Notes: a model not told the origin generated them from the sequence alone. Shown: positions 21,759 through 29,810, counted from the first letter of the stretch. The stretch is DNA of 64,000 nucleotides from an uncultured Bacteroidales bacterium (GCA_964456825.1 CAYWCR010000005.1:9305-73304), one strand, 5' to 3'. Numbers and translations: made by a program.

Positions 21759-21791
21759 GGCGCGTAATACCGGCATTTGAAAGCATTTATT

Positions 21792-21799
21792 TAAATTTG
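21792..21799 (+). promoter_or_regulatory. Sigma-70 -7 element (TAAATTTG) just before the ECF sigma start
   Basis: Exact TAnnTTTG ending 5 nt before ATG21805; would imply a near-leaderless mRNA. Confidence 0.35.
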
Positions 21800-21804
21800 T
21801 TTTC

Positions 21805-22398
21805 ATGCCTGCGGATGATAACCTATTATTCTCACTGGTAAAACAGGACAATAAATCTGCCTTTGATACCCTGTTCCGGAAATACTATGTGAGATTATGC
21901 CGGTATACCTGTCATTTTATCGCTTCAACACCGGAAGCCGAAGAAATCGTGCAGCAGGTATTTATACGCTTGTGGGAGCAGCGACAACAAATCAGCATTA
22001 ACACCTCCCTGCTTGCCTATTTGTATACGTCGGTAAGAAATCAATCCATGAATGAACTTAAAAAGGAAAAGATCCGGCGGCATTATGAAGAGGAGTTCGT
22101 GATTCAGAAATCCTTAACGGAAGAAACAACAACCGGTAACCCGGGAGAAGAAAAGCTCAAAAGGGCTATCGAAAAAGCATGCCTGCAATTGCCTCCGAAA
22201 TGCCGTGAGATATTTGAACTTAGCCGGAATGACGGCCTTACCTATGAAGAAATAGCCGAATATCTCTCCTTGTCCAAAAAAACAGTTGAGAATCAAATGG
22301 CCATTGCTTTTCAGAAATTGCGTCAGCAATTACAGCCTTATCTGCATATGCTTTGGATAATTTTTGTTGCTTGTTTTTTAGGGGATGGTATTTTATAA
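21805..22398 (+). CDS. ECF RNA polymerase sigma-70 factor (Bacteroides expansion family)
   Basis: AFDTLFRKYY, AEEIVQQVFIRLWE, YLYTSVRN, LPPKCREIFELSR.DGLTYEEIA..L.LSKKTVENQM. Confidence 0.95.
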   Translation: MPADDNLLFSLVKQDNKSAFDTLFRKYYVRLCRYTCHFIASTPEAEEIVQQVFIRLWEQRQQISINTSLLAYLYTSVRNQSMNELKKEKIRRHYEEEFVIQKSLTEETTTGNPGEEKLKRAIEKACLQLPPKCREIFELSRNDGLTYEEIAEYLSLSKKTVENQMAIAFQKLRQQLQPYLHMLWIIFVACFLGDGIL

Positions 22399-22416: not shown

Positions 22417-23424
22417 ATGGTAATGGAAGAAAAAGTACCTTTCGGCCTGCTGGCGAAATTTATAACGGGACAGGGCACACCTGAAGAAAACAAGTGGGCG
22501 GCGGAATGGATTGAGCTGAGCAGTCAAAACCGGGAGATTTATGACCAGCTGGTTAAGATCTGGGAGAGGTCACGGAAAACACAAACGGAGTTTACCCCTG
22601 ACACAGAGAAAGCCCTGGAAGCAGTAAATGCAGAACTCAGCCGGGAAAGTAAGCAGGATTTCTCAAACACTGCCAAAAACAGCAAGCTCCCCCGCTTTTT
22701 ACTGAGGATTGCTGCGGTTCTCATGTTGATGGCCGGAAGCTGGCTTATTTTCAATCAAATACAGCACAGGGAAGAGATCATAATGACAGACAACACCGGC
22801 AAACCCATGGATGTCAGATTGCCCGACGGCAGCCTTGTTACCCTCAATACGGGGGCGACATTGCGCTATCCGCATGCGTTTCGGAGGCAAAAAAGAGAAG
22901 TTAATCTCTCGGGGGAAGCCTTTTTTGATGTAAGCAGCCATCCGGAAAAGCCATTCATTATTAAAACGGAAAATACGTTTGTACGGGTGCTGGGAACGTC
23001 ATTTAACGTACGTGCCTTGAAAAACGAAGCCTCGGTTGTTGTGACCGTTGAGGAGGGCAGAGTTGAATTTGGTTCTGTGCTGGAGATGGAAAAGTCCGGG
23101 ATTGAAATTGCAGCTGGCGAAACGGGGATCCTGGAAAAAGGAAAAAGCCCATCTATTGCCAGTACCCGGGATGACAATTACCTTGCCTGGAAAACCGGTA
23201 TATTGACCTTTCATAAGGCTCCTGTAACGGAGGTTATCCATGCGGTTGAGAAATACTTCTTTGTCCGTATTCAATCTGAGAACAGTTTTCTTGATTCGGT
23301 TTCTGTTGACGTCACACTTTACCGGGAAAATGAAGCCGAAATGATAAAAACCATTGAAATGCTGATTGGCTTTAGCATAATTCCGAAGGACAGTCTGTAT
23401 ATTATAACCGCTGAGTCCATTTGA
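22417..23424 (+). CDS. FecR-family anti-sigma factor
   Basis: N-terminal anti-sigma helices, one TM (LRIAAVLMLMAG), LPDGSLVTLN, REVNLSGEAFFDV, VRVLGTSFNV, AWKTGILTF. Confidence 0.95.
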   Translation: MVMEEKVPFGLLAKFITGQGTPEENKWAAEWIELSSQNREIYDQLVKIWERSRKTQTEFTPDTEKALEAVNAELSRESKQDFSNTAKNSKLPRFLLRIAAVLMLMAGSWLIFNQIQHREEIIMTDNTGKPMDVRLPDGSLVTLNTGATLRYPHAFRRQKREVNLSGEAFFDVSSHPEKPFIIKTENTFVRVLGTSFNVRALKNEASVVVTVEEGRVEFGSVLEMEKSGIEIAAGETGILEKGKSPSIASTRDDNYLAWKTGILTFHKAPVTEVIHAVEKYFFVRIQSENSFLDSVSVDVTLYRENEAEMIKTIEMLIGFSIIPKDSLYIITAESI

Positions 23425-23439
23425 TACTAATTTTTGCCG

Positions 23440-24657
23440 ATGATTTTCATCCGGAGAATCCTGATATTGCTGTTTATGATCCTGATGATGAAGGCTGCGT
23501 GCCATTCTCAGTCCGTCCTTCTGGATATGCATGTAACCCTCAACATGAACCATAAGCCGCTATGGCAGGTAATGGACAGTCTCAGGAAGACTGCGCACAT
23601 ATTCATTGCCTATTCCAACGCCCTGTTCGCGGTGGATAAACCTGTTACCATTGCTGCATCAGACAGGCCGCTTCGGAATGTGCTGGAGGATATATTGGAA
23701 GGGACAGGTTACACGTACAGGATTTTTCATAATCAGATTGTTTTGCAACCATTGCCGAAAAGGCCTGCCCTGTATTACATAAAAGGTTTTGTCAGGGTAA
23801 AGGACAGCCTTAACCCGATTCCTTATGCCACGATTTCCATCGTTAGCAGGCAAACAGGCGTTATAGCCGATATCAACGGTGCCTTTGTGTTCCCGGCCAG
23901 TGAAGAATGGCTGCAGGATACCCTGTTTATCTCCTCCATCGGATATGAACCGGTGAGCATATCCCTAAGGGAAATGCGGAATGAAAGCCCTCAGCCGGTT
24001 TATCTGAAAAGGATCATGTATGAGATTGAGCCTGTCATTATTGAACCTGAAAATACCCAAAAGGTCAGGCTGGGCAACCGCAAAAACCGAGCTGCCGGAT
24101 CACTTTACATGGATACTCACGGACAGCAGGTTGCCTCTTTCATTGAAATGGAAGACGGCCGGAAAGGTACCCTGAAAACACTTTGGTATTATCTGTCAGA
24201 AGACGGAAATGCCGATGCACCGTTCCGCATCAGGCTGTATGCGTATGACACTGCTTCAGGAAAACCCGGGAATGATCTTTTGCAGGAAATGGTGGTCGTA
24301 AAGCCTTACGGGAAAGCCGGATGGTATGCTGTGGATCTGCATCACCACTACATTCCTGTTTCTTCGCCCGGCTTTTTTATTGCCATGGAAGGAGTGTTCC
24401 CTAATGATTATGATTTTTATGCCCAGGGAGATGATTTTACGGATATCGCCAAAACCTCCCCGGAAACGGAAATAGAAGATTCTCCGACGATGATCAGCTA
24501 TGGACAGCGGCTGGGATATACCAAAAGCCGGCGCAATGAAAACAACACCTGGCATTATTCGTTAGACCATACCTGGTTTCAGTTAAAAAAGCAACTTTTT
24601 TCGGTTATGGTTGCTGCGGATATTATAATGCTTGAAAAGCCACATAAAGAAGAATGA
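23440..24657 (+). CDS. STN + carboxypeptidase-like regulatory (CarbopepD_reg_2) domain protein without TonB-dependent barrel
   Basis: Signal peptide, STN (LDMHVTLNM..KPL..V...; PLRNVLEDILEGTGYTY...NQIVL), IKGFV...PIPYATI...GVIADINGAF...SSIGYE, then a C-terminal domain of about 200 aa; only about 405 aa in total. Confidence 0.8.
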   Translation: MIFIRRILILLFMILMMKAACHSQSVLLDMHVTLNMNHKPLWQVMDSLRKTAHIFIAYSNALFAVDKPVTIAASDRPLRNVLEDILEGTGYTYRIFHNQIVLQPLPKRPALYYIKGFVRVKDSLNPIPYATISIVSRQTGVIADINGAFVFPASEEWLQDTLFISSIGYEPVSISLREMRNESPQPVYLKRIMYEIEPVIIEPENTQKVRLGNRKNRAAGSLYMDTHGQQVASFIEMEDGRKGTLKTLWYYLSEDGNADAPFRIRLYAYDTASGKPGNDLLQEMVVVKPYGKAGWYAVDLHHHYIPVSSPGFFIAMEGVFPNDYDFYAQGDDFTDIAKTSPETEIEDSPTMISYGQRLGYTKSRRNENNTWHYSLDHTWFQLKKQLFSVMVAADIIMLEKPHKEE

Positions 24658-24658
24658 C

Positions 24659-25684
24659 ATGAAAACGCTCTTAATCATAGTAAGCCTGTTAACCGGAGCT
24701 GCCGTAGCTGAAACAGCTGCACAGTGCAACAGCAAGCTGGCCGAACAGGCTGCCTCCATGAGTGGCAAGGAAACTATTGTCATCCGTGAGTTTAAGATAA
24801 AACTGGAAGAAGGCAACATGGACAAGCCGATGCCTGTCGGCCGGTATGCCGTGATGCTGAATGAGGGAATGCATTACCGGATTACCCTGGTTAATTCGGC
24901 ACTCAGCGAAGGCAGGGGAGTTGTGCAATTGTATGATAGAACCCTGTTGCTGGGAAGTACATACAATGCGGAGTCCGGTAAAGATTACGAAACCTTCGAT
25001 TTCATTTGCAGTAAGACAAAAACATATCAGGTACTGGCCTTTTTCAGGGAAGGAAAGCCAGGTTGCATGGCAGCAGTGCTTTCCATGATCCTCCCTGATT
25101 CGGCAACCGTATCCGGCATAACAGACGAAGCGGAAAGGGAAATACTGTATATCGGCATCGATAATCCTTTGTTGATCAGCTCTTCGGATACAGAACAACA
25201 AGCTGTCAACCTGAATATCGACCAGGGGAGCATTGAAGAAACAGGTGGCGAATACAGGGCCAGGGTCATTAAGGAAGGGCTGGCCATGGTTCATGTTGAG
25301 GTATTGGATTCCATGGGCAATATAACCGCGACCGACTCTGTGGCTTTTGATGTACGTCCCATGCCCTTGCCGGTAATGATGATTGCAGGCAGGCAAAGCG
25401 GTACCCTGAGCCGTCAGGAAATACAGAATGCCAGAACCGTTGATTTATGGGTACCGGTTGCAGGGGCGGAAAATTACTTCTCCCTCCTTGAGTATTCGCT
25501 GATAACTGATTTATCCGTGAATAGCGGAATGACGGTTGCCGGGAATCAGTTACCGCTGCGTCAGAAAGAAGCTATCCTCAGCCTGACGGAGGGCTCGTCA
25601 TTCTTATTAACGAATGCGGTTGTCAGCACCCCGGACGGATCCACCCATAAGCTGCCGGCACAGACCTACTGGCTGGGTTGGTAA
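24659..25684 (+). CDS. Secreted protein: unknown N-terminal domain + PorM/GldM-like C-terminal (D3-D4) domains
   Basis: Signal peptide MKTLLIIVSLLTGAAVAETAA; EILYIGIDNPLLIS, FDVRPMPLP...AG..SG.LS, GNQL...TPDG...KL match the GldM/PorM C-terminus as I recall it. Confidence 0.7.
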   Translation: MKTLLIIVSLLTGAAVAETAAQCNSKLAEQAASMSGKETIVIREFKIKLEEGNMDKPMPVGRYAVMLNEGMHYRITLVNSALSEGRGVVQLYDRTLLLGSTYNAESGKDYETFDFICSKTKTYQVLAFFREGKPGCMAAVLSMILPDSATVSGITDEAEREILYIGIDNPLLISSSDTEQQAVNLNIDQGSIEETGGEYRARVIKEGLAMVHVEVLDSMGNITATDSVAFDVRPMPLPVMMIAGRQSGTLSRQEIQNARTVDLWVPVAGAENYFSLLEYSLITDLSVNSGMTVAGNQLPLRQKEAILSLTEGSSFLLTNAVVSTPDGSTHKLPAQTYWLGW

Positions 25685-29217: not shown

Positions 29218-29435
29218 CGCTCTGCGGTTAAATACTAATCCATCCTGATCTTACCTGAGAAAGCATGCTTATACGCCATTCATCAATGCTTTTTATCCGT
29301 TGGCTAAGGGGACAAATTGCTTTATTTCATACCGCCGGATGCAGGTCAACTATTTATTGACATTCGTCATAAGAATCAATCTTATTTTAAAACCCTGCGT
29401 AAACTTGTATAAAAGCTACTAAGAAAAAAGTGAGT

Positions 29436-29810
29436 ATGAAAGCAATTATGATTGAAGCATCACATTCGACCCCTGCCATAAATTTTTGCGAGGACGGGAG
29501 ATTGTTGATCGAAGGCCGTTCCTTACCCGAGGATGTGAATAAGTTCTACAAGCCTCTTATTGAATGGATCATTAACCTGAGCACGGAATCAGTAAGGCTG
29601 GATATTAATCTGGAATATTTCAACAGTGCCTCTGCCAAGAAGTTGCTTGAATTGCTGAAGATGCTGGATGCCAACAGCAAAATAAAAAGCCTGATTATCA
29701 ACTGGCACTATGAAGAGGGTGATGATGATGCACTAGAAACGGGTCAGATTTTTGAAGACTTATTGGGAAGGGCTCAGTTCCGTTATCATGAATACACTGA
29801 GGCAGCCTGA
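29436..29810 (+). CDS. SiaC / DUF1987 family regulatory protein
   Basis: STPAINF, IEGRSLPED...FY.PLIEW, LEYFNSASAK, INWHYEEGDDD.LE.G. Confidence 0.88.
   Translation: MKAIMIEASHSTPAINFCEDGRLLIEGRSLPEDVNKFYKPLIEWIINLSTESVRLDINLEYFNSASAKKLLELLKMLDANSKIKSLIINWHYEEGDDDALETGQIFEDLLGRAQFRYHEYTEAA

Follow-up and report, generated by a model that had tools for sequence, protein, structure and literature searches.

The window analysed here comprises 64,000 nt of DNA from an uncultured freshwater-sediment Bacteroidales bacterium. It carries four consecutive genes, coding for an ECF sigma factor, a FecR-type anti-sigma factor, an exported STN protein and a small protein that is termed here the tip protein, because its C-terminal part resembles the distal domains D3 and D4 of the type IX secretion (T9SS) protein PorM/GldM. 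The coordinates of the genes and of their parts are listed in Table 1. The anti-sigma factor has a cytoplasmic N-terminus, one transmembrane helix and periplasmic FecR and FecR_C domains, and its position in the cluster is conserved. The STN gene ends with GAA GAA TGA at 24655-24657, a single C follows at 24658, and the ATG of the tip gene stands at 24659. This agrees with an earlier sequence-only reading of the locus, which had let the tip gene begin 1 nt past the STN-gene stop. A TTG at 24632 provides an alternative start, giving a longer tip ORF that overlaps the STN gene. The MK start at 24659 was preferred because all homologues align from MK.

Table 1. Genes of the cassette and parts of their products, in window coordinates
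Feature	Coordinates	Strand	Description
ECF sigma factor, Bacteroidetes type, first cassette gene	21805..22398	+	TIGR02985 163.8 bits (cut-off 126.4); Sigma70_r2, Sigma70_r4_2, Sigma70_ECF
FecR-type anti-sigma factor	22417..23424	+	PF04773 8.4e-19; PF16344 5e-4
STN + CarbopepD_reg_2 protein, exported, 407 aa	23434..24657	+	PF13715 1.7e-8; STN 1e-5
Domain X of STN protein, residues ~195-407	24016-24654	+	best-conserved part of the STN protein
Tip protein ORF	24659..25684	+	341 aa
Predicted signal peptide, residues 1-21	24659..24721	+	hydrophobic core, AETAA/QC; cleavage before Gln22
N-domain, residues 22-146	24722..25096	+	one helix and eight-strand beta sandwich in the model; pLDDT mostly 85-95
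Flexible linker, residues 147-158	25097..25132	+	pLDDT <50 at 149-157; length varies in the alignment
D3-like Ig domain, residues 159-234, LYxGxDNP motif	25133..25360	+	PF21602 29.9 bits; profile and fold matches
D4-like domain, residues 235-341, and stop codon	25361..25684	+	PF12080, family profile, hhalign

Gene spacing suggests that the four genes are co-transcribed. No RNA run contained the tip gene, and the DNA runs in which it was found were all freshwater sediment, soil or wetland metagenomes. A scan for sigma-70 promoters and terminators gave counts at the level of shuffled sequence and nothing above chance. Alignment of the regions upstream of the sigma gene revealed no clear ECF promoter, only housekeeping-type motifs similar to TAnnTTTG. 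The upstream sequences suggest a separate promoter for the cassette, followed by a leader of very few nucleotides. In the window, TTTAAATTTG is located at ~21786-21800, 5 nt before the sigma ATG, and it is found likewise in loci L001-L003; it resembles the TAnnTTTG housekeeping promoter element of the Bacteroidetes. In other clades, TTAGGGGG...TTGTC was observed upstream of the sigma gene.

The tip protein had been proposed to carry a cleavable-type signal peptide. This was corroborated by the AETAA/QC cleavage region and by the conservation of the Gln, found directly before the first Cys in 205 of the 230 family sequences. Such a Gln fits the Q-rule of the Bacteroidetes for signal peptidase I substrates, and hence cleavage by this enzyme (PMC5837995). 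A lipoprotein was considered and rejected, since there is no lipobox, the conserved Gln precedes Cys23, and Cys23 covaries with Cys136. The protein was likewise rejected as T9SS cargo: neither TIGR04183 nor TIGR04131 (NCBIfam) matched at E values up to 1, and the C-terminal domain is a GldM D4. No membrane anchor was found, and the AF2 model contains no second hydrophobic helix. Pfam and NCBIfam searches detected no enzymatic or protective domain.

The relationship to PorM/GldM was examined with profiles and structural models. Pfam GldM_3rd (PF21602) matched residues 162-233, with a score above its cut-off of 25.2 bits. GldM_4th (PF12080) reached 18.6 bits at residues 236-333, under its cut-off of 24.6, and is recorded in other members of the tip family. 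A family profile built from 35 members matched three P. gingivalis PorM crystal chains (6ey5, 6ey6 and 7cmg) with an E value of ~5e-23; the match covered query 151-342 and reached the last PorM residue. F. johnsoniae GldM was matched with E 0.003. Comparison with an alignment of GldM-type D3-D4 segments by hhalign resulted in 99.95% probability (E 1.2e-37, 190 columns), with no match outside D3-D4. The AF2 model of the tip protein (pLDDT 87.4) was compared with the PDB by Foldseek, and the best seven matches were all PorM/GldM; the alignment to PorM 315-516 had TM 0.57-0.63, rmsd ~5 Å and 24-25% identity. Pfam searches at E up to 1 gave no match to GldM_1st (PF12081) or GldM_2nd (PF21601), and NCBIfam TIGR03517 aligned at profile positions 330-518 of 524 only, scoring 46.4 bits against a cut-off of 180. 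Because the anchor, D1 and D2 are absent and TIGR03517 stays far below its cut-off, the tip protein is not a PorM/GldM orthologue.

What the sequence-only reading had observed in the protein is thus fully confirmed. Its D3-D4 motifs are borne out by Pfam, the family profile, hhalign and Foldseek, and the absence of an inner-membrane helix and of D1-D2 by Pfam, hhalign and the AF2 model. The similarity to PorM structures that it expected from Foldseek was found, for D3-D4, in the seven best matches. For PF12080, which it had named as a check, the window sequence itself lies below the cut-off, and D4 is supported by the profile, by hhalign and by the other members. Four independent lines of evidence, namely the family profile, hhalign, the model with its Foldseek matches and the partial TIGR03517 alignment, lead us to conclude that residues 159-341, up to the C-terminus, are homologous to PorM/GldM D3-D4. 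Judged by its sequence, the tip protein is exported and soluble, being homologous to PorM/GldM in D3-D4 and lacking the anchor, D1 and D2.

PorM/GldM (6ey4, 6ey5, 6ey6, 7cmg; TIGR03517) and the tip protein have D3-D4 in common, including the LYxGxDNP start of D3. Ahead of these domains, PorM/GldM has an N-terminal membrane helix, a helical D1 and an Ig-like D2, whereas the tip protein has an apparently unrelated N-domain bracketed by cysteines. The N-terminal transmembrane anchor of PorM/GldM pairs with PorL/GldL, and D2 contributes a large share of the strand swap by which the protein dimerises. The genetic setting differs as well, PorM/GldM genes lying in porKLMN and the tip gene in an ECF/FecR operon. 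A maximum-likelihood tree built from D3-D4 segments places the tip family in one clade and separates it, with 99/99 support, from a second group, where GldM sequences are interspersed with M56-fused and stand-alone modules.

The cysteine-bracketed domain of about 125 aa that had been noticed earlier was recovered as residues 22-146, with C23, C117 and C136. Pfam and PDB sequence searches with this N-domain gave zero matches, and it belongs to no ligand-binding family recognisable in them. We do not claim it as a diverged GldM D1 or D2, since the hhalign match is confined to D3-D4 and the Foldseek alignment to D2 is loose, with a generic sandwich likeness. C23 and C136 occur together in 190 sequences, are both absent in 15 and single in 1, and this covariation makes a C23-C136 disulfide probable. 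Proteins consisting of the N-domain alone mostly have four cysteines, compared with three in the window protein. As 12 of these stand-alone sequences keep only the inner pair (pattern xCCx), the inner cysteines are taken to form a second disulfide. In the full-length family, the second cysteine is never present (Ala31 is invariant), and the third, C117, is kept in 73 of 90 members. Cys117, encoded at window 25007-25009, thus appears to be unpaired; it gives this exported protein a conserved free thiol, which could form an intermolecular disulfide. No cysteine partner for it was found in the FecR protein or the mature STN protein of the window.

The N-domain alone makes up more than 100 clusters of ~145-aa proteins. 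These are homologous to the N-domain of the tip protein (30-44% identity, common AQC...GC frame), but lack D3-D4. In all ten loci examined (L021-L025, L030-L033, L035), the gene directly follows one for an unannotated lipoprotein of ~300 aa; a fused ABC transporter (~1,040 aa) and SiaC are encoded upstream in nine of nine sufficiently long loci, and DUF6272 or SpoIIE is often present too. The ~300-aa lipoprotein was compared with the STN protein by BLASTP (E >0.1) and phmmer and is unrelated to it. A SiaC-family gene is also found in the window at 29430-29810, 3.7 kb downstream of the tip gene, and likewise in L001. The SiaC genes of the stand-alone clusters show 30-33% identity, and their link to the window gene may be coincidence.

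Conservation of the cassette was followed in relatives of the tip protein. Word-indexed searches yielded ~37 full-length relatives of 326-383 aa, and an exhaustive HMMER search 61 clusters at E ≤ 1e-30. All sources are Bacteroidales/Bacteroidota, including the cultured Dysgonomonas sp. PF1-14 and BGC7 and Bacteroides sp. 51 and 519; RefSeq names the proteins just 'GldM family protein'. In the genome loci, an orthologue of the STN protein is encoded directly 5' of the tip gene every time (17 of 17), and the informative metagenome loci show the same arrangement. Sigma factor and FecR genes lie upstream in every locus of sufficient length, at tip-protein identities of 28-55%. In many lineages the STN stop and the tip start are separated by 1 nt or overlap. 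The assignment of the tip gene to an ECF operon is thus upheld by the recurrent linkage of sigma, FecR, STN and tip genes. Since this linkage recurs in all informative loci, down to 28% tip identity, the four-gene cassette is not peculiar to the source genome. In Bacteroides sp. 519 (L007, 2795-5287), three genes are located between the FecR and STN genes, among them one for an AbiEii toxin-type nucleotidyltransferase. A complete Bacteroidales-type cassette was also found on a contig (L010) filed under an uncultured Candidatus Gracilibacteria MAG, an assignment that is probably a binning error. Our literature search found no paper on GldM-tip proteins, M56-GldM fusions or a sigma/FecR/STN-X/tip cassette.

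The STN protein has neither plug nor barrel and ends in a domain of ~200 aa that we call X; the protein is referred to as STN-X below. Its STN domain scores 25.6 bits in the window protein, below the Pfam cut-off of 28.4; among 18 orthologues, 15 gave an STN match, the best at E 1e-6. Among 19 sequences, X has 31 invariant residues, with Asp, Gln, Arg, Tyr, Trp and His frequent among them, and this set of polar and aromatic residues looks like that of a binding site. Pfam and PDB sequence searches with X gave zero matches. AF2 modelled X as a jelly roll made of beta strands only (pLDDT 76.4). We considered X as a mimic of PorN or PorK and rejected this, as Foldseek returned generic jelly rolls only (viral capsid, MAM, DOC, PHR, CBM) with TMq <0.5. 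The idea that the STN-X/tip pair copies the PorM-D4/PorN contact is therefore unsupported.

Downstream of the tip gene, the operon occurs in two versions. In the window and in loci L001, L004, L006, L014/15 and L026, a gene for a GH3-family enzyme follows. In a Dysgonomonas-like clade (L007, L013, L016-L020, L029/L036), the gene of a 1,456-1,653-aa receptor begins 20-190 nt after the tip gene. This receptor contains CarbopepD_reg, VIT and VWA domains in a pre-plug extension, followed by the TonB-receptor Plug, and has no STN domain. One example of ~1,630 aa is encoded at L016 8023-12960; no homologue of the VIT-VWA receptor was found in the 64-kb window. The STN-X protein and the STN-less receptor together look like a split TonB-dependent transducer. 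In one lineage, the tip protein ends after D3 (FAVLMLP-stop) and has no D4, and the operon is kept. There, the receptor gene begins 41 nt on, and the sequence is identical in three assemblies.

D3-D4 segments were also found outside the cassette. Proteins of ~220 aa consist of D3-D4 alone behind a signal peptide, and 8 of the 12 top-scoring proteins of ~500 aa are Peptidase_M56 (BlaR1-like) membrane proteins with D3-D4 at the C-terminus. From this range of architectures we conclude that PorM/GldM D3-D4 is a mobile module that occurs in several other settings. In L037 (596-2674), a BlaI-type repressor gene is followed after 4 nt by a Peptidase_M56 gene ending in an extracytoplasmic GldM D3-D4. 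As proposed for the cassette, D3-D4 is here the extracytoplasmic part of a transmembrane signalling system of Bacteroidota. In the BlaR1-like proteins it is fused to a membrane protease and falls into the GldM-like clade, whereas the tip protein is encoded separately, is soluble, has an N-domain of its own and belongs to a sigma/anti-sigma pathway. In L041 (199-2333), a 223-aa D3-D4 protein adjoins a 434-aa protein of Ricin-B-lectin, D3 and D4, with GH116 and GH9 genes beside them. In L043 (1-6944) and L044, the gene of a 218-aa D3-D4 protein follows that of a polytopic membrane protein (342 aa), and both lie between genes for an nSTAND NTPase (1,355 aa) and a SpoIIE phosphatase. The polytopic protein has a weak GldL_N match (E 9e-4), and the cluster could be a reduced GldL/GldM-like signalling unit. 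In L039 (4908-6654) and L040 (117-1863), a gene for a 341-aa GldN-family paralogue precedes that of a 217-aa lipoprotein-like protein consisting of D3-D4 only. This pair lies away from any gldKLM genes, and the same D3-D4-only protein occurs on 16 contigs.

Based on these observations, the tip protein probably belongs, as a new component, to a pathway of envelope signalling. As the best explanation we propose, tentatively and at a little less than an even chance, that it serves a split cell-surface-signalling system as periplasmic adaptor or sensor subunit, acting there with the STN-X protein. It would be exported by the Sec route, cleaved before Gln22 and then paired with the co-translated STN-CarbopepD_reg-X protein. 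The rigid PorM-like D3(-D4) stalk and the disulfide-stabilised beta sandwich would join the tip/STN-X complex to a partner or ligand on the outer-membrane side. In the Dysgonomonas clade, this outer partner would be the neighbouring VIT-VWA TonB-dependent receptor. Binding or release would alter the contact of STN with the periplasmic FecR domain, so that the sigma factor is freed or held. In this scheme we infer the physical contacts, which way the signal flows and what the signal is. It is favoured by the 1-nt gap, the invariable linkage to STN-X, the adjacent STN-less receptor and the invariant X residues, and further by the use of D3-D4 as an extracytoplasmic module in the BlaI/M56 and nSTAND/SpoIIE clusters. 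Against it stands the window clade, which has no receptor nearby and a GH3-family gene next in line.

The proposed arrangement was compared with known systems. In FecA-FecR-FecI and in the SusC-like transducer/anti-sigma/ECF-sigma systems of Bacteroides (PMC2709373), ECF sigma factor and FecR are likewise encoded together, with an STN domain whose counterpart in the window protein is a match below the cut-off. In those systems, the STN domain sits on a TonB-dependent plug-and-barrel receptor, whereas in the cassette it is part of a soluble protein ending in a novel jelly-roll domain. The cassette differs further in its extra PorM-tip protein, an obligatory neighbour, and its receptor, where present, has VIT-VWA and no STN, unlike FecA-type transducers.

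A further objection to a split signalling system is that the tip protein could lie on the output side of the sigma factor and not on the input side. It would then have a structural, protective or binding role in the periplasm, increase in amount when the pathway fires and share the operon only through ECF autoregulation. The tip gene is indeed the last of the core operon, a frequent place for effector genes in ECF systems, and both modules of the protein occur in many non-ECF contexts; for the N-domain these include the secreted proteins made of it alone, whose genes accompany those of a lipoprotein and an ABC transporter. However, the linkage is specific to the STN-X gene, with start-stop coupling, and persists down to ~28% identity, which is more typical of subunits of one complex; the enzymatic or protective domain that an effector might carry was not detected. 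We consider an output role rather unlikely.

The sequence-only reading had suggested that the tip protein docks on, modulates or reports on the T9SS. In such a scheme it would be a free copy of the PorM tip, and the STN protein and FecR would report T9SS status to the sigma factor. Its D3-D4 domains are true PorM homologues, and PorM D4 alone suffices for binding to PorN, a contact confirmed by Cys cross-linking (PMC5790014, PMC12421860). In addition, the stand-alone D3-D4 gene directly after the gldN paralogue in L039/L040 indicates that detached tips can pair with ring-type partners. On the other hand, no T9SS gene is linked in any of ~30 family loci, and no other GldM-like or GldN-like ORF is present within the 64-kb window. 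Binding of PorK needs PorM dimers mediated by D2-D3 (PMC5790014), and D2 is absent from the tip protein. The D3-D4 clade of the tip family is separate from the group with bona fide GldM, and the X domain of the partner has no likeness to PorN or PorK. The constant partner is the STN protein, and in one clade the VIT-VWA receptor follows. D4, the PorN-binding domain, was lost with the operon kept, which is weak evidence against docking because it concerns one lineage only (three assemblies). Literature naming both Dysgonomonas and the T9SS contained no usable statement. With an STN-X partner, no linkage to T9SS genes, a D4-less lineage and a separate clade, the suggested docking found no support, and we regard it as unlikely.

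A broader version of this idea takes D3-D4 as a mobile docking probe that has been wired into ECF/FecR/STN, BlaI/BlaR1-type and STAND-NTPase/SpoIIE pathways and reads the PorK/N (GldK/N) ring or a related outer-membrane assembly. Ring-attached proteins are known to bind the T9SS ring covalently. In the present cassette, the free tip would bind the ring, maybe covalently via Cys117, and relay the status of the secretion machine to transcription. We judge this to be distinctly improbable. Very doubtful, finally, is a periplasmic accessory of TonB-dependent uptake that takes substrate from the VIT-VWA receptor or gates it, with signalling secondary and the window clade keeping what remained once the receptor gene had disappeared or been relocated: the receptor gene lies immediately downstream in the Dysgonomonas clade and other D3-D4 proteins have lectin heads (the Ricin-B-D3-D4 protein beside GH116 and GH9), but the four-gene core is kept without the receptor in the window clade and several others, and the N-domain matches no recognisable ligand-binding family.

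The split cell-surface-signalling system that we favour would bear on more than this locus. In textbook cell-surface signalling, the STN domain is carried on an outer-membrane barrel; in this cassette, conserved in dozens of Bacteroidales, it is found on a soluble protein with an obligatory partner derived from the T9SS motor-arm tip. If the proposal is true, it would add a new route by which a periplasmic or outer-membrane signal enters an ECF sigma factor. PorM/GldM D3-D4 is moreover a reusable module and not private to the motor, which has a bearing on the way PorM itself contacts its partners. The full five-gene version is present in cultured Dysgonomonas strains, which opens the system to bench tests.
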